UHGV virus genome: UHGV-1419557
Reading direction: 5' to 3' (one strand)
DNA: 22,498 nucleotides
Source: a virus
The stretch's first letter is position 1. Every line of letters begins with the position of its first letter. Below, piece after piece: positions 2,411 through 22,498 of the stretch. The translations under genes and the position numbers were made by a program. Below the pieces are notes generated by a model. It searched no databases. It saw only the letters and a program-made list of their open reading frames with translations, and was not told the origin of the DNA.

Positions 2411-2844
2411 GCAGAGTCACCGCGATTATCTCCGCTCTGATTATTTGCATCATCGTCTGCCTGTCATGGGCTGTTAATCATTACCGTGATAATGCAATCG
2501 CCTACAAAGAGCAGCGCGATAAAGCCACATCCATCATCGCTGATATGCGGAAGCGTCAACGTGATGTAGCAGAACTCGACGCAAGATACACAAAGGAGCT
2601 TGCTGATGCTAACGCGACTATCGAAAGTCTCCGTGCTGATGTTTCTGCTGGGCGTAAGCGCCTGCAAGTCGCCGCCACCTGTGCAAAGTCAACGACCGGA
2701 GCCAGCAGCATGGGCGATGGAGAAAACCCAAGACTTACAGCAGATGCTGAACTCAATTATTACCGTCTCCGAAGTGGAATCGACAGGATAACCGCGCAGG
2801 TTAACTACCTGCAGGAGTACATCAGGACGCAATGCCTTCGATGA
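2407..2844 (+). CDS. Rz: Spanin inner-membrane subunit (i-spanin), lambda Rz type
   Basis: 145 aa with N-terminal TM helix ([18 protein letters not shown]) and coiled-coil body. N- and C-termini match recalled lambda Rz, middle diverges. ATGA overlap with R. Confidence 0.9.
2606..2791 (+). CDS. Rz1: Spanin outer-membrane lipoprotein subunit (o-spanin), embedded in Rz in the +1 frame
   Basis: ORF in +1 frame wholly inside Rz. SD aaaggag at 2592-2598, ATG at 2606, signal peptide with lipobox-like VSAC, Pro-rich mature region. Start could also be the TTG at 2600. Confidence 0.6.
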
Positions 2845-3017
2845 TAGCGATAATTTTACTCATCATCCTTCACATCTGGCTCTGTAGACAGGGTGGTGAT
2901 CACTTCTGGAGTGAATCCAGATTAAACATCTCATTGCTGATGCTTGATATTGAGCATCTGGCGCGCGGTAAGGGGCTGCGTTGAGATAAGAGCCAGTCAT
3001 TACAAATACCAGGATTT

Positions 3018-3042
3018 AGCCTCGCATTCGCGGGGCTTTTTT
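3018..3042 (+). terminator. Intrinsic terminator after lysis cassette
   Basis: Stem agcctcgc / gcggggct (one G-U pair), loop attc, then TTTTT. Confidence 0.4.
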
Positions 3043-3189
3043 ATATCTGCAGTAAACCGCGCATCGCAGCGCGTAACAATCCCGAGTCTTTCAGAAAGCT
3101 GAGCCTGAGAACTGCCGTATATGGTGGCGACCATCTCGGGGCGGCTTTTCTGTGCGAACAGGCTCATCTTTCTAAAAGGTAAAGACGCA

Positions 3190-3732
3190 ATGAACTACCC
3201 AACCGTTGTTAACGATATAGATTTCAGAGACCTAATTTTTGTAGCAAACAACGATCCGGTTACAGATTCTTTTATGGTGGCAAAAGCATTTGGAAAGCTG
3301 CCGAAGAACGTGGTTCGTGACATTGAACGAACCATAGAAGCTTGCCCTCCTGAGTTTGATACAAAGCTCAACTTTGAGCTTTGCTATAAAAACAATGAGT
3401 TACAGAATGGTAAGCCGCAAAAATTCTACCGTCTCCGCAAGGATGGGTTGATGCTTTTGGTTATGTCCTACACCAAAAAAGAAGCAATGCGTATCAAAAT
3501 TGCTTACATCAACGCATTCAACTGGATGTACGCCATGCTTCAGGTTGGTCATCGTCAATTTGAAGAAGAGAGAAATGCCGTAATGCTGGAGTACATGAAA
3601 GAGAAGGATGTTGCCAGCATGTCAGGCCGCCTGCTTAATCGCTGGGGAAAAATTAAGAAGCCTCAGCTACTGGCGAGAATTGAACGCCTTGAACAGCACG
3701 GGCAAACCGTAATCCCCGGACTCACCAATTAA
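3190..3732 (+). CDS. rha: Rha-family phage regulatory protein
   Basis: Rha-like N-terminal motif (DSFMVAKAFGKLPKNVVRDIERTIE). Sits between lysis and packaging genes, where P22 carries rha. Start at ATG 3190 preferred; upstream ATG 3121 is possible. Confidence 0.7.
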   Translation: MNYPTVVNDIDFRDLIFVANNDPVTDSFMVAKAFGKLPKNVVRDIERTIEACPPEFDTKLNFELCYKNNELQNGKPQKFYRLRKDGLMLLVMSYTKKEAMRIKIAYINAFNWMYAMLQVGHRQFEEERNAVMLEYMKEKDVASMSGRLLNRWGKIKKPQLLARIERLEQHGQTVIPGLTN

Positions 3733-3959
3733 CGGCAGTACAGCGAAACAACCCAAGCCAGAAAGTGGGGAAATAACACTGGCAGCCACTGAAAGATGAA
3801 CCTCCTGCCTTATGGCAAAAAAGATTCTTTGTGGTGGCGGACTGATGGAAAGACATCGGTTATTGCAGAGACCATTCAATGAGTGGTCTCGACAATGGCT
3901 TATACCCTACACGGGATAACTTAACTGATATCCCTTTTAACGGATAAACGGAGCCAACA

Positions 3960-4202
3960 ATGGCAGAGATTATTCCCATGACTGAAGAACAGAAATTCCA
4001 GTTAGAGATTTACAAGCTGGTCATGAACCAGAACGCAGCCGCAGAGGAAGCATTTCAGTTCATTGGCACTGACGAACTGAAGCTTGAGCTATTCAAAATT
4101 CACTTCCAGTCAGGCGGCGCTAATTCAGATATCACGACCCGCACTATCGAAGCGGTGCGTAAATCGAAGGAAGCGTTAGACCTGTTCACCACCGGAGCAT
4201 AA
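3960..4202 (+). CDS. Hypothetical small protein (80 aa) upstream of terminase genes
   Basis: ORF with SD (aacggag) upstream of the ATG, immediately preceding the small terminase gene. No recognisable domain. Confidence 0.5.
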   Translation: MAEIIPMTEEQKFQLEIYKLVMNQNAAAEEAFQFIGTDELKLELFKIHFQSGGANSDITTRTIEAVRKSKEALDLFTTGA

Positions 4203-18414: not shown

Positions 18415-18481
18415 TATTGCGCATAGCGTGTATTCAATGGATGCATAGCTATTGATAATCTCCGATAAGAAGGAGGTTTGT

Positions 18482-19048
18482 ATGAGCAATGAGACTAATG
18501 GGATTGATGAAATGTTTAGCTTGAACGCTGCCAAAGCTGGAGTCGCAATAGGTTTGCTATTACAGCAAGCTTCTGCGTTCAGTTGTGAGGTGGTTGTTAC
18601 TGATAACGTTCAGCACGCTTACCATCAATCCTCATTCAGCAGTGAACGGGCTAATGATGAGCTTCATGAGGCGGTGTCTTCGATTAAAGAATTGTCTCGA
18701 ATGCTGAAATACGCTTATCGTGTTCTTGCAAACGCTACCGATGAGAATGTAGACAATGTGTTGTCTATCATTGAACCAGAAAAGTCTCGATTGATAGAGC
18801 ATCAATTGAGAGGACTTGAAGGGGCAATGAAATCGGTATTCAAAGAAGCTTCTGCTGATTTTAAAGAGATCGCAAGAGATATCTATATCGTTGTTGCTGA
18901 TGCCAGATCTGCCGTAACCAACCTGAATAGTCTTATTAAACAACGCTCATGTGTTCCGGTTGTTTTTGATAGTTCCGTAGATATGGCTGGTTTGCGTGCG
19001 CTTGCTGAGCACGGGACTCGTGTGTTTCACTCTGGTAACTTCCACTGA
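18482..19048 (+). CDS. Hypothetical protein (188 aa), first gene of a two-gene operon; candidate partner/antitoxin of the downstream YafO-like protein
   Basis: Strong SD aaggagg 6-7 nt upstream of ATG 18482. Stop is 8 nt before the next start, whose SD lies across this stop. No recognised domain. Confidence 0.65.
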   Translation: MSNETNGIDEMFSLNAAKAGVAIGLLLQQASAFSCEVVVTDNVQHAYHQSSFSSERANDELHEAVSSIKELSRMLKYAYRVLANATDENVDNVLSIIEPEKSRLIEHQLRGLEGAMKSVFKEASADFKEIARDIYIVVADARSAVTNLNSLIKQRSCVPVVFDSSVDMAGLRALAEHGTRVFHSGNFH

Positions 19049-19056
19049 GGTAAAAC

Positions 19057-19506
19057 ATGCAAGTAACCGTGGAATATAATCAGGATAGTTTTGACTATTT
19101 TTTCTCCCCGGTTTTTGTTGAGTTTCCTGATTTAAAACAAACACTTGTAGATGATTTTATCATCTACAAGTCTACGGGAACGTTGCCCAGCTATTTTGGC
19201 AGAGACACCTCTTATCATCGACCTCCTGATATTGAAGATGCAGGCCTTATGCACCTTCATTTAGCAATTGGTGAAAATAAATTTGAGCCAATAAAAAATG
19301 GCACAGATATCAGCACACCGCAAAAGTTGCAGTGGCATAAAACATCCAATACCGCTCTCGTTTATGCACAAAATCTTTTTGATGAGAACAGGTATTCATT
19401 GATTGCTCTTTTTCATCCTGTAGCTCACATGTCTGCTAACAATCATAATAGAATGAGAGTGTTAGCAGGGTATGCGAGAGACTTTAGAAACACTATGTTT
19501 GACTAA
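19057..19506 (+). CDS. YafO-family toxin-like protein (putative ribosome-dependent mRNA interferase domain)
   Basis: 149 aa. DFIIYKSTGTLPSYFGRD ... HLHLAIGEN.F.P ... ALVYAQNLFDEN.YSLIALFHPVAHMSANNHNRM ... FR parallels recalled E. coli YafO (DFISYKRDGVLPDIFGRD ... HIHLANENNPFPP ... HLVYCQGAFDEQAWLLIAILKPEPH ... DNNQM ... FR). Followed by a strong terminator. Confidence 0.6.
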   Translation: MQVTVEYNQDSFDYFFSPVFVEFPDLKQTLVDDFIIYKSTGTLPSYFGRDTSYHRPPDIEDAGLMHLHLAIGENKFEPIKNGTDISTPQKLQWHKTSNTALVYAQNLFDENRYSLIALFHPVAHMSANNHNRMRVLAGYARDFRNTMFD

Positions 19507-19554: not shown

Positions 19555-20091
19555 TCAAACAACCCACCAGTTTGCCTGATTGGATGCCAGCCTTGCAGTT
19601 TTTATGGAATTAATTATGCCATGCTCAAGAGCCTTGTTAGCATCCAAAATGGTCGAGTCTGCTATCAGGGATGCCCACCTAATATGGGTTCCGATGTCGA
19701 TATTGAACGTCTCAACGAAGCGATCAAGATCGTTATCGAGGCATTTCCCGTACTCTCTCAATCTGGCATGGTCGGCGGCTGGGGAGGCAAAGCACCATAA
19801 TAGAGGATGTAACAGGAATCTTGATAATGGGTTTGCGAAACGTTCTGAGCCAGCCAGGAAAACGATATTAGCTATGGATTCAACATTGCTTATGTTGTGA
19901 GTTCTAACGGTAACAGGGAGTGACTTAAGAAAGTTATACGCAGTAAAGCCAGCAGCAGTTTCCCCTCCCTGACTTGATATATGGATATTTAATTCAGTTG
20001 CGCCTTGAGATAATGCGGTGAGACAGTGGTTCTGAAGTTGCCCAACAGTGGCAGTGTTAACAGGGCATAAGAAATGAATTGTGTGCAGCAT
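19555..20091 (-). CDS. Compact ClpP-like (peptidase S14 / ClpP-crotonase fold) protein, translationally coupled to mnt
   Basis: 178 aa. IHISSQGGETAAGFTAYNFLKSLPVTVRTHNISNVESIANIVFLAGSERFANPLSRFLLHP aligns by eye with ClpP [63 protein letters not shown], with the catalytic Ser and His positions conserved and a candidate Asp downstream. Start ATG overlaps mnt stop (TAATG on - strand); SD aagga upstream. Confidence 0.65.
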   Translation of the reverse strand: MLHTIHFLCPVNTATVGQLQNHCLTALSQGATELNIHISSQGGETAAGFTAYNFLKSLPVTVRTHNISNVESIANIVFLAGSERFANPLSRFLLHPLLWCFASPAADHARLREYGKCLDNDLDRFVETFNIDIGTHIRWASLIADSTILDANKALEHGIINSIKTARLASNQANWWVV

Positions 20092-20339
20092 TATTTTTCA
20101 TCCTTAGCATACATGGTCTTTAGCGTCTCAAGTAGCGCCTCTTTGAATTTATCAGCTTCTTGCTGAGCAAATGACTCAACTGACTTTGGCGACCTATCTT
20201 CATCAATCGCGGCTTGCAAAATCATGACGATCTCGGAGTTAACAGAGCGACCATTTTTTGATGCTCTGACAGCAAGAGCCTCGCGTAAAGATTCAGGGAT
20301 TCTTACCGTAGTTGGAGAAATTGACACACCCTTTGCCAT
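20091..20339 (-). CDS. mnt: Mnt repressor (ribbon-helix-helix, Arc/MetJ superfamily)
   Basis: 82 aa from ATG 20339 (- strand). NGRSVNSEIVMILQAAI motif and ...ETLKTMYAKDEK C-terminus parallel recalled P22 Mnt. Divergent from arc as in P22 immI. Confidence 0.8.
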   Translation of the reverse strand: MAKGVSISPTTVRIPESLREALAVRASKNGRSVNSEIVMILQAAIDEDRSPKSVESFAQQEADKFKEALLETLKTMYAKDEK

Positions 20340-20453
20340 ATAACACCTTTGGTATTCAATTTGATAGCAAAGTGTATGCAAAAAAATTTTGACTAGATAT
20401 ACTCACTTTGCTATCTTTTGTATTCGAAAAGAGTTGTTTGCGTGGAGGGTAAC
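20340..20453. promoter_or_regulatory. mnt-arc divergent control region (candidate Pant/Pmnt and operators)
   Basis: 12-bp inverted repeat arms GATAGCAAAGTG (20363-20374) and CACTTTGCTATC (20404-20415). Candidate Pant: TTGACT at 20389-20394, TATCTT at 20412-20417. Arc SD ggaggg at 20444-20449. Confidence 0.5.
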
Positions 20454-20606
20454 ATGGAGAAAGAAATAAGTAAGATTTTGGTAAGGATGCCGCAGTCGTT
20501 AAAGGATGCTATCGGTAGCAGGGCAAAGGAAGAGTGCAGGTCGTTTAACTCAGAGGTTATCAAGCGCCTGATAGACAGCCTGAAGAGAGAGGGGGTAACG
20601 GTGTGA
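20454..20606 (+). CDS. arc: Arc repressor (ribbon-helix-helix)
   Basis: 50 aa from ATG 20454. ECRSFNSEVIKRLIDSLKREG parallels recalled P22 Arc NGRSVNSEIYQRVMESFKKEG. Upstream of ant as in immI. Confidence 0.8.
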   Translation: MEKEISKILVRMPQSLKDAIGSRAKEECRSFNSEVIKRLIDSLKREGVTV

Positions 20607-20776
20607 TTCGCTTGGATGCAGTAGTCAAAGAGATTGCGATTACCATTTTAAGACCAAATTTTGTTCATGGCGAATCATTTGGCACGAACGAAAAATTGAG
20701 AAGAGAAAGAGTATTCAGTGGCAAGCGCACGTTTTCAGAAGTGATGCTTGATGCGGCAAAGAAATCAAAACAGTGA
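20603..20776 (+). CDS. Possible small ORF (57 aa, GTG start) in the arc-ant spacer; speculative
   Basis: GTG at 20603 overlaps the arc stop (GTGTGA) with SD-like gagggggt 7 nt upstream. Open to TGA at 20774-20776. Lys/Arg-rich product, no known domain. Confidence 0.25.
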
Positions 20777-20842
20777 AGCCCCAACTGCTGGAACAGTCAG
20801 GGCTTCGGTTGTCGGTAAATCCGTGGAGAAAAACCAACATGA
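20758..20842 (-). ncRNA. sar: Candidate sar-like antisense RNA covering the ant ribosome-binding site
   Basis: On the - strand: extended -10 TGCTATACT (complement of 20845-20853) would start transcription near the ant ATG. Hairpin (gaagccc 20775-20781 / gggcttc 20800-20806 plus inner 4-bp stem) followed on the - strand by TGTTTTGATTTCTTT acts as terminator. Predicted RNA about 70-85 nt, antisense to the ant SD and start, as for P22 sar. Confidence 0.35.
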
Positions 20843-21741
20843 ATAGTATAGCAATTTTAGAAGCAGTGAACACCTCTTACGTGCCATTCAACGGTCAGCA
20901 AATTATCACCGCCATGGCTGCCGGAGTTGCATATGTTGCGATGAAGCCAATCGTTGAAAACCTCGGAATGAGCTGGTCAACGCAGCAAACAAAACTCATG
21001 AAGCAGATTAGCAAATTCAACTGTGTTCATATGAACATGGTTGCCGCTGATGGTAAGCTTCGTAAGCTACTCTGCCTTCCTTTGAAGAAGTTAAATGGAT
21101 GGCTGTTCAGCATCAACCCTGAGAAAGTTCGTGCTGACATCCGCGATAAACTGATTCAGTACCAGGAAGAATGCTTTACTGTGCTGCATGACTACTGGAC
21201 AAAGGGAGAGGCAGCAAATGCACGGAAGAAAACATCTGTTGATGACAGGACTCCGCTTCGTGATGCTGTAAATATGCTAGTCAGCAAAAAGCATCTAATG
21301 TACCCAGAAGCTTATGCAATGATTCATCAGCGTTTCAATGTGGAAAGTATTGAAGAGCTTGATGCATCTCAGATACCACAAGCAGTAGAGTACATCCACA
21401 GGGTAGTGCTTGAAGGTGAGTTCATCGGCAAACAAGAGAAGAAAACCAACGAGCTTTCTGCAAAAGAAGCAAACAGCCTTGTATGGCTATGGGATTATGC
21501 CAACCGCTCACAGGCATTATTCCGCGAACTGTATCCGGCGCTAAAACAAATTCAATCGAACTATTCCGGCAGATGTCATGACTGCGGTTATGAGTTCTCC
21601 CGTATTATCGATATGGCGAGAGACGTTTTAATCAATCACACACGAGATGTTGATATCAATGAGCCAGACGGACCAACGAATCTTTCCGCATGGATGAGAC
21701 TTAAGAATAAAGAATTACCTCCTTCAGTACATAATTACTGA
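20839..21741 (+). CDS. ant: Antirepressor Ant
   Basis: 300 aa from ATG 20839. [57 protein letters not shown]... matches recalled P22 Ant. Follows arc and is followed by a terminator and the tailspike gene. Confidence 0.9.
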
Positions 21742-21760: not shown

Positions 21761-21783
21761 CCCAGCTTCGGCTGGGTTTTTTT
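21761..21783 (+). terminator. Intrinsic terminator after ant
   Basis: cccagc-ttcg-gctggg hairpin followed by TTTTTTT. Confidence 0.75.
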
Positions 21784-21841
21784 ATGCCCAAAATTCACCG
21801 TGGCCATGCTGCGGCGATTCTTTGCATCTGGAGCAAATTAA

Positions 21842-22498
21842 ATGACAGACATTACAGCCAATGTGATTGTATCGATGCCTTCGCAACTCTTCACTATGGC
21901 GCGTTCTTTTAAAGCCGTAGCCAATGGCAAAATTTATATCGGTAAAATTGACACTGACCCGGTAAATCCTGAAAACCGGATTCAGGTTTATGTAGAGAAC
22001 GAAGACGGCTCTCACGTTCCTGTTTCGCAACCAATCATCATTAACGCTGCTGGTTACCCTGTATATAACGGACGGATTGCCAAGTTCGTAACTGTGCAAG
22101 GCCATTCTATGGCTGTGTACGATGCGTATGGCGTACAGCAGTTCTATTTCCAGAATGTGCTGAAGTATGATCCTGATCAACTACGGCAGCAATTAGAAGA
22201 CCCAGATGGAGCGAATAAATACCCAAAACTTCAGATAGCAAGATGGAGAGACAGTTATGATGTAAGAGGTTGGGGGGCTATTGGTGATGGTGTTCATGAT
22301 GATACATCAGCTCTATCAGAATTACTTTCTGTTGCAACAGGTGGTGAAAAGATAGATGGGCGAGGGCTTACTTTTAAAGTATCAACTCTTCCAGATGTCA
22401 GTCGATTTAAAAATGCTCGTTTTTTATTTGAGAGAATACCGGGTGGATTTGCCCCTATATTTCCAGACACCTGTTATCACTTAACCCATTACTGGCTT
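21842..22498 (+). CDS. Tailspike protein, 3-prime partial: P22 gp9-type head-binding domain followed by a different receptor-binding domain
   Basis: SD ggag 8 nt upstream of ATG 21842. First ~115 aa ([59 protein letters not shown]...VLKYDPDQ) match recalled P22 tailspike N-terminus. Downstream [15 protein letters not shown] is a pectate-lyase-superfamily beta-helix entry motif. Open to window end. Confidence 0.9.

Follow-up and report, generated by a model that had tools for sequence, protein, structure and literature searches.

The mnt/arc cassette and its host prophage

The stretch of DNA analyzed here, referred to as the window, comprises 22,498 nucleotides of the virus genome UHGV-1419557 and is 100% identical to a P22-like prophage of Escherichia coli ATCC 11775. 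Its closest phage is phiv205-1, a Lederbergvirus that is 98.6% identical to the window. We found that the window has the gene layout of a P22-type immI region, in which an mnt-like repressor gene diverges from an arc-ant operon between the DNA-ejection genes and an IS-interrupted tailspike gene (Table 1). This position is the 'ant moron' site of P22-like phages, which is highly variable in content (PMC2629481).

The Mnt-like protein matches the Pfam family Arc (PF03869, E 9.5e-11) and shares 36% identity with P22 Mnt over residues 11-79, almost its whole length. Its best PDB match is 1mnt (E 2.3e-6, covering residues 12-73), and an identical CDS is annotated in RefSeq. As in P22-type Mnt, an RHH domain is joined to a C-terminal region for which oligomerization is predicted. 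The Arc-like protein is 39% identical to P22 Arc and has PDB matches to Arc, and by Pfam both repressors are Arc-family RHH proteins. Downstream of the promoter Pant, the Arc homologue is accompanied by an Ant protein with P22_AR domains, as expected for a P22-type immI. Positions 20774-20900 are 93-98% identical to a region of P22 and epsilon34 that is annotated as sar in epsilon34; a sar antisense RNA region, the expression of which is predicted, is thus found at the start of ant.

Table 1. Features of the mnt/arc control region and the adjoining genes (positions in the window)
Feature	Position	Strand	Description
mnt-like repressor gene	20091..20339	-	ORF, 82 aa; N-terminal RHH domain and C-terminal region homologous to P22 Mnt
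Outer left copy (c1)	20347..20357	+	CTTTGGTATTC; exact match to CTTTGNTAT; convergent pair with left arm
Left arm	20363..20374	-	GATAGCAAAGTG on plus strand, CACTTTGCTATC on minus strand; putative Mnt-like operator over Pmnt
Best Pmnt -10 candidate	20371..20376	-	TACACT; putative
Conserved core	20377..20394	+	A7T4 tract (possible UP element or bend) and Pant -35 TTGACT; invariant columns
Pant -35	20389-20394	+	TTGACT (promoter scan)
Pant spacer element	20395..20403	+	AGATATACT; candidate Arc-like recognition element
Right arm	20404..20415	+	CACTTTGCTATC; putative Mnt-like operator overlapping Pant spacer and -10
Pant extended -10	20409..20417	+	TGcTATCTT, 9/12 match with TG; hexamer TATCTT 20412-20417
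Outer right copy (c4)	20415..20425	+	CTTTTGTATTC; at about Pant +1
arc-like repressor gene	20454..20606	+	50 aa; Pfam Arc, E 5e-12
Small ORF between arc and ant	20603..20776	+	57 aa; no family; absent from P22, present in relatives
sar-like antisense hairpin/terminator upstream of ant	20775..20806	-	Terminator scan; T run
ant antirepressor gene (regulated output)	20839..21741	+	Pfam P22_AR_N, E 4e-45; P22_AR_C, E 2e-28

Several neighboring features were recorded alongside the cassette. A sharp mosaic boundary lies at approximately 20774 (compared to L001 (P22) 1500-1627): the sar/ant leader and the start of ant carry the 93-98% identity to P22 and epsilon34, while mnt, the operator region, arc, and the 57-aa ORF to the left have only distant kinship to them. 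The 57-aa ORF overlaps the arc stop codon (GTGA), and its position is conserved in 611R6, Emek, and Salmonella relatives; a Pectobacterium relative has, at the corresponding place, an ORF with a ClpX-type zinc-finger match. On the other side, a gene for a ClpP-family protease homologue (178 aa, 19555-20091, minus strand; Pfam CLP_protease, E 2e-11) begins at the mnt stop codon and is probably co-transcribed from Pmnt in the lysogen. The mnt-ClpP pair is also present in phiv205-1, PhiR12_1, and E. coli HH97. Since the ClpP-like gene occupies the place of P22 sieA, it is a candidate exclusion or defense cargo gene. Further upstream, a YafO-family toxin gene (19057-19506, plus strand; Pfam E 3e-22) is preceded by a 198-aa ORF that has no family match, and together (18452-19506) they may form a toxin-antitoxin pair with an unusually large partner. 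The YafO gene adjoins an mnt gene of the same type as that of the window in a Salmonella Kottbus contig (L121). An IS21-family element (ISEc12, istA/istB; window positions ~21780-22498; L120 6474-8776) separates ant from the tailspike gene in the ATCC 11775 prophage, which may therefore be tail-defective; phiv205-1 also has transposase genes at the ISEc12 site, after a short tailspike fragment.

For comparison, we gathered immI cassettes and found six specificity types with the layout of the window, in addition to the differently laid-out cassettes of P22, Emek, and CUS-3/ISHS7. The types are distinguished by the N-terminal beta-strands of Mnt and Arc, given here in that order: W (this window; PTTVR, KILVR), E (611R6/EDL933; PYSVR, RILVR), R (PhiR12; PLGIR, PLGIR), Proteus (L101; PYSLR, KFQLR), Pectobacterium (L126/L127; PYGVR, DCIVR), and Edno5 (PYGIR, PVGIR). 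A scan of genome contigs by Mnt alignment returned mostly unrelated alphaproteobacterial RHH genes, and only two Proteus loci from it were useful.

Inverted arms, motif copies and promoters

The initial annotation described a control region built around two identical 12-bp inverted arms spaced 29 bp apart. The arms are exactly as it described: within the 114-nt mnt/arc intergenic region they are complementary at 12/12 positions with 29 nt between them. Of 20,000 dinucleotide-preserving shuffles of the intergenic region, 7 contained a perfect inverted repeat of 12 nt or longer (P = 3.5e-4, or 0.035%), and perfect 12-nt inverted repeats with a gap of 60 nt or less occur in only three places elsewhere in the 22.5-kb window. 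However, the region is not built around two identical arms, since these are the two best among at least four copies of the motif CTTTGNTAT (core starts at 20347 (+), 20364 (-), 20406 (+), and 20415 (+)) and most relatives have arms that agree at 11/12 positions. With up to one mismatch allowed, CTTTGNTAT occurs 25 times in the window compared to 20 expected. Five of these copies fall within 20331-20423 (93 bp), where approximately 0.08 would be expected from the window-wide density, and these five include three of the five exact matches in the window.

The outer copies, c1 and c4, resemble each other, c1 being a direct repeat of 20415-20425 at 10/11 positions. The position homologous to c1 bears a type-specific motif in other types, and c4 stands in tandem with the copy in the right arm, 9 bp start-to-start. 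In one relative (L124) the TGTATTC of c4 forms a perfect TGTATTC-N5-GAATACA inverted repeat, and in E-type relatives the c4 position is a 13-bp palindrome that is kept by compensatory changes. This E-type palindrome at Pant +1 occurs in two forms (L122 and L123 compared to L003/L006), TTGTGA-T-TCACAA and TTATGA-T-TCATAA, which differ by a compensated double change that preserves the dyad; EDL933 has a half-changed intermediate. The left arm overlaps a near-palindrome, TTTGATAGCAAA (20360-20371). Over the mnt start codon lies another motif copy (c0, 20331-20339), which was set aside as a probable coding coincidence, given that the E type does not have its own motif there. A rule of fixed half-sites and spacing (TTTG-N4-CAAA or GTGA-Nx-TCAC) was also rejected, since the spacing of the E-type copies is variable (1-3 nt).

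Promoters were compared by a consensus scan which, as a control, recovered both Pant and Pmnt of P22, fully overlapping. In the window the scan identified Pant as a strong promoter, with a 17-nt spacer between TTGACT and TATCTT and an upstream TG, and this arrangement is repeated in the E and R types. As had been proposed, the Pant -35 lies between the arms, and the right arm reaches into the Pant -10, covering approximately -20 to -9. Between the W and E types, conservation is highest in the stretch from the A-tract through the -35 (83-87% compared to ~70% elsewhere). Pant was the only promoter recovered, as no leftward consensus promoter was called by the scan here or in the E and R relatives. 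A relaxed scan for minus-strand -10-like hexamers with T1, A2, and T6 returned TACACT in W, E, and R, TATATT in Proteus, and TACATT in Edno5, such that a TAYAYT hexamer lies 12 nt before TTGAC in all five types scanned. TACACT also stands at this position in the Pectobacterium sequence, which was read by eye. TACACT is most likely the Pmnt -10, which would place the left arm from inside the hexamer to about +2. Two other candidates were ranked below the conserved TACACT: a Pmnt that mirrors the Pant -10 (TGcTATCAA, 20361-20366) and one whose spacer would contain the arm (TTTGCA-17-TTGAAT). The exact start is thus a guess among three candidates. The prediction that the left arm covers Pmnt appears robust to this choice, because all three candidates place the arm inside the promoter and it falls on the only plausible Pmnt region, where the initial annotation had located Pmnt.

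The arms vary among close relatives. In a set of 33 near-identical W-type loci from IMG/VR (L061 was read by eye), the arms are complementary at 12/12 positions in 7 loci and at 11/12 in 26. GATATC is found in the left arm in 20 of the 33 loci, where it makes TTTGATATCAAA a perfect palindrome, and in the right arm in 4 of the 33; CGC replaces CAC in 2 of the 33. The fifth base of either arm varies independently and without compensation, which argues against an RNA stem and fits the non-contacted center of a protein site.

These data bear on the possibility that the repeat has no operator role and that the arms are either mirrored -10 elements of two divergent promoters (TGcTATCtt and TGcTATCaa) or part of an RNA structure, a hairpin or terminator, that acts on read-through of the late operon. 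TGCTATC is indeed present in both arms, and the right one is the extended -10 of Pant, but the identity of the arms reaches 5 nt beyond any -10 element. Furthermore, the left hexamer TATCAA is without the conserved final T, is not kept in other types, and competes with a better -10 candidate elsewhere. For the plus-strand RNA, a fold energy of -17.1 kcal/mol (z = -3.1) was obtained, and UUUUG comes next, but such an energy is simply what a perfect repeat gives, and a hairpin is at odds with the non-wobble stem mismatch in 26 of the 33 close relatives, with pair 9 being unpaired in 8 of 12 sequences, and with the extra direct copies outside the stem. The repeat does not resemble an intrinsic terminator either: its loop is 29 nt, only 5 of the 12 stem pairs are G-C, and the terminator scan makes no call at the arms. 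We consider a repeat devoid of operator function highly improbable.

Co-variation of arms and repressors across specificity types

We found that the layout of the window recurs in the five other types as a left site, 29 bp, and a right site 15 nt after TTGAC, with arm sequences that differ between types and co-vary. A 29-nt gap separates the arms of the best or near-best 12-nt inverted repeat of the W, E, and R types; its right arm starts 15 nt after TTGAC, and the position of the left arm is conserved at IGR 27/28. A 53-nt unit aligns gap-free in W, E, R, Proteus, and Edno5. Among 12 distinct sequences, 84% of arm cells are complementary compared to 71% in shuffles (0 of 500 reached this value), 5 of 12 arm positions change on both sides, and slid registers are only 17-52% complementary. 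Pentamers specific to a type are repeated at homologous positions, with three copies of CTTTG in W, five of GTGAT in E, three of GTGAT in Proteus, five of TGTAG in R, and four of TGTAA in Edno5. The region therefore has the hallmark of RHH repressors that read repeated subsites, namely at least two motif copies over the regulated promoter that co-vary with the N-terminal strand of the repressor.

The wider set of cassettes yielded several observations on how these modules are put together. In the R type (L004 PhiR12_1 1592-2091; IMG/VR L085-L098) the N-terminal strands of the two repressors are nearly equal, RDIAPLGIRIP in the Arc-like and RDISPLGIRIP in the Mnt-like protein, and the intergenic region holds five copies of the 12-mer CACNGTGTAGCA; operators there seem to be shared between a dimeric repressor and another that is presumably a tetramer. 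Some prophages carry two tandem mnt genes of different types (L116 CUS-3 251-780; IMG/VR L082 and L084), either CUS-3 type with P22 type or CUS-3 type with E type, which looks like stacked immunities against antirepressor expression by heterologous superinfecting phages. The mnt-arc-ant cassette is also found between tail genes L and K of lambdoid siphovirus prophages (L005 EDL933 2492-4147; L004 PhiR12_1). Its presence at both this site and the podovirus ejection/tailspike site indicates that it moves as a module. The E. coli O157:H7 EDL933 cassette has a truncated arc of 36 aa and a degraded Pant -10 (TACGTT).

The 29-nt gap is invariant in all types examined though the arm sequences differ. 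The arms could be shared or overlapping sites for both repressors, with a Mnt-like tetramer or a pair of tetramers bridging 41 bp across the A-tract in a small repression loop that locks both promoters. Besides the invariant gap, this would be consistent with a separation of approximately 3.9 helical turns, which places the sites roughly on one face, with the conserved A7T4 tract between the arms, and with the asymmetry of the single W-type arms, which are symmetric about the global center and not each about its own. The identical N-terminus of Arc and Mnt in the R type means that sharing of sites occurs in the wider family. However, 41 bp (~140 Å) is far below the ordinary looping range, an 82-aa tetramer is small, and the adjacent partner copies c1 and c4 allow conventional one-turn cooperativity. 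A fixed promoter scaffold explains the spacing equally well, as a -10-like hexamer always lies 12 nt before TTGAC. Such bridging is, in our view, improbable. The same holds for a single 'split' operator of which the arms are half-sites, with one Mnt-like tetramer, or two that interact, contacting both asymmetric arms across 41 bp of intrinsically bent A-tract DNA, wrapping Pant -35/UP and turning both promoters off together; if true, it would explain both the invariant gap across types and the symmetry of the W arms about the global center. We know of no micro-loop geometry of this kind described for Arc/Mnt-family repressors. The fixed 41-bp center-to-center spacing mainly reflects the conserved scaffold of back-to-back promoters, which consists of the putative Pmnt -10, 12 nt, the Pant -35, 17 nt, and the Pant -10.

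Our data suggest that the arms follow the Mnt-like protein. Mnt N-termini of one kind (RDI-x-PY[S/G]xRMP) go together with GTGAT/ATCAC-type arms (GATATCACAGTG or GATATCACAATA) in the E, Proteus, and Pectobacterium types, while the Arc beta-strands of these types (RILVR, KFQLR, and DCIVR) are unrelated. Conversely, the W and E Arc proteins are identical at 43 of 50 residues (86%), whereas their Mnt N-termini differ (PTTVR compared to PYSVR, ~44% identity over the first 25 residues) and so do their arms (CACTTTGCTATC compared to CACGGTGATATG). The arms thus track the Mnt-like N-terminus and not the Arc-like protein in both directions of these natural 'swaps'. The 9-mer in the Pant spacer shows the opposite behavior and follows the Arc beta-strand type, not the Mnt type, across 12 loci. 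It reads (A/T)GATATA(C/G/T)T in all seven loci with a K/R-[IT]-L-[VI]-R Arc, irrespective of a W-like or E-like Mnt, and differs in every other Arc type. These associations are not explained by simple linkage, since the pattern is mosaic: the right arm and c4 have diverged, while the core on one side of them and the arc gene on the other are conserved. Knight and Sauer reportedly found in 1989 that operator specificity is set by N-terminal residues of Arc and Mnt. On the basis of this N-terminal specificity in P22, the separate tracking of arms and spacer, and the mosaic pattern, we assign the arms to the Mnt-like protein. On balance, it is fairly likely that they are operators through which this protein represses Pant and autoregulates Pmnt. 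The spacer element is tentatively a recognition element for the Arc-like protein, which is a less secure assignment than that of the arms. Distinct repressor-specific elements probably still exist as in P22, with the arms serving the Mnt type and the adjacent 9 nt serving Arc.

Alignment to the P22 operators gives a mixed picture. When anchored on TTGAC, 20394-20414 lies opposite the P22 Oarc with 14/21 matches, the spacer 9-mer aligns with its left half, and the right arm lies opposite its right half with 9/11 matches. The initial annotation held that its proposal would fall if the arms were ordinary parts of known P22 operators; this is partly so for the right arm, which is homologous in position, and partly in sequence, to the right half of Oarc. 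By positional homology, the right arm points to Arc rather than Mnt. One may accordingly ask whether the arms are half-sites of an Arc-like operator, a 21-bp Oarc split by 29 bp, through which the Arc-like protein shuts off both Pant and Pmnt, with the Mnt-like protein binding only 20347-20357 and 20415-20425. P22 Arc does repress both divergent promoters from one operator (PMC2724298). What the W and E arms have in common (ATA-CA--GTG) might be all that the Arc protein of both types needs, and with no more than 2-4 of 12 positions different between these arms, a single Arc protein could accept either. The outer copies, moreover, include one at Pant +1, the place of Omnt in P22, which is palindromic in the E-type relatives and in L124. 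Omnt of P22 is a 17-bp palindrome at Pant +1.

A split Oarc is nevertheless difficult to reconcile with the very similar arms of the E, Proteus, and Pectobacterium types, whose three Arc beta-strands are unrelated, or with arm changes from W to E that track Mnt while Arc is unchanged. The Arc type is tracked by the adjacent 9-mer and not by the arm, and the internal dyad of Oarc (TAGA-N5-TCTA) was not found in 20394-20414. Other candidate dyads for an Arc-like operator in 20371-20416 (GACT-N6-AGTC, AGATA-N12-TATCT, and GTAT/ATAC) were not convincing. We therefore regard the split Oarc as unlikely and retain the assignment of the arms to the Mnt-like protein. This assignment rests on about six lineages that are not independent, and the protein-to-DNA code is not simple, as the Edno5 and Pectobacterium types have near-identical Mnt beta-strands and different outer half-arms. 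A simple code in which the -2 residue of the beta-strand (S/T compared to G) goes with the outer half-arm does not hold in the Pectobacterium type. In addition, the matches of c1 and c4 are weaker, with a half-site spacing that differs from type to type.

Proposed control of the cassette and comparison with known systems

From the arrangement of sites and promoters we infer a regulatory scheme in which the arms, as members of an array of four or more related sites, are two operators of the prophage's own Mnt-like RHH repressor. On the right, the arm and the copy c4 in tandem with it would cover the -10 and the start of Pant, which would drive arc, the small ORF, and ant, while the left arm and its convergent neighbor c1 would cover the -10/+1 of a weak leftward Pmnt. 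The Mnt-like protein, probably a tetramer like P22 Mnt, would block Pant when it occupies the right pair of sites and would limit Pmnt, by negative autoregulation, when it occupies the left pair. In a lysogen, the antirepressor would be kept silent and synthesis of the Mnt-like protein would be self-limited. The Arc-like protein, made from Pant after infection, would most likely bind 20395-20403, with a footprint that overlaps the right arm, and might thereby cause a transient shut-off of Pant as in P22. Since the starts of the two promoters would lie approximately 60 bp apart, the footprints of RNA polymerase at both promoters would overlap, and competition as in P22 is possible.

The P22 immI is the textbook system for beta-sheet DNA recognition, and to our knowledge the P22 version is the only one that has been studied. 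In the literature, we found descriptions of the variable gene content of this region and none of the operators of this variant. The variant or its E-type sibling has matches in 631 of 5,426 complete E. coli genomes, including O157:H7 prophages, and in 416 of these the match covers at least 80% of the query. Across the types, repressor N-termini and operators vary in matched fashion while the promoter scaffold stays constant, a natural series that could be used for dissecting the RHH recognition code and for predicting which prophages cross-silence or cross-induce each other via antirepressors. The region is an uncharacterized but unsurprising variant of a classic phage control region, and nothing known is overturned by it.

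Among other systems, lambda PR/PRM works in a similar manner only in that one repressor acts over two back-to-back promoters, silencing the lytic side and autoregulating its own. The fold differs (HTH compared to RHH), and the comparison does not extend to activation or graded site affinities. RHH repressors that read repeats resemble the proposed arrangement more closely, with subsites of 7-12 bp in direct and inverted orientation that overlap promoter elements. Boxes of Arc and CopG lie a few bp apart and form a symmetric element (13 bp) over promoters (PMC2724298), to which TTTG-N4-CAAA at 20360-20371 may be compared. Reg576 of pLS20-family plasmids reads 7-bp repeats 9 bp apart (PMC6294495), the same start-to-start distance as that of the copies at 20406 and 20415. 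The omega/ParB protein of pSM19035 reads heptad arrays in mixed orientations (PMC9499535), as are the copies here. The subsites of these systems are contiguous, whereas the two best copies here are 41 bp apart around a promoter core, and these proteins have only the RHH fold in common with the proteins of the window, for which binding is predicted.

The closest comparison is P22 immI itself. Both regions have the same gene order and orientation, homologous Mnt (36%), Arc (39%), and Ant proteins, a sar/ant leader that is 93% identical, and a strong Pant with a repressor site, putative in the window, between the -35 and the -10. The presumed logic is also the same, with a maintenance repressor and a transient autoregulator of an antirepressor. 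As the initial annotation had suggested, the layout nevertheless differs. A search that allowed up to 3 mismatches found neither the Oarc (21 bp, TAGA-N5-TCTA, between the -35 and -10 in P22) nor the Omnt sequence here, and P22 has no counterpart of the 27-nt stretch in which the left arm lies. The intergenic region is 90 bp in P22 compared to 114 bp here. P22 has 'two divergent and overlapping promoters' (PMC2724298), Pant and Pmnt overlapping completely, whereas only Pant is consensus-like here and the leftward promoter would have to lie approximately 40 bp further left. An inverted copy of the -10-proximal site is found 29 bp upstream, over the putative Pmnt, where P22 has nothing, and the single 17-bp Mnt palindrome of P22 contrasts with a motif in at least four copies. 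The cassette is further distinguished by the additional ORF that separates arc from ant and by the ClpP-like gene downstream of mnt. In Emek, a phage with a P22-type Arc, a copy of the half-site of its own +1 palindrome stands at the -10-proximal position, which suggests that Mnt-type motifs can use this position. Taken together, these comparisons indicate that the promoter-proximal part of the region is a diverged homologue of the P22 control region, from which it differs by the upstream inverted site and the predicted displacement of Pmnt.
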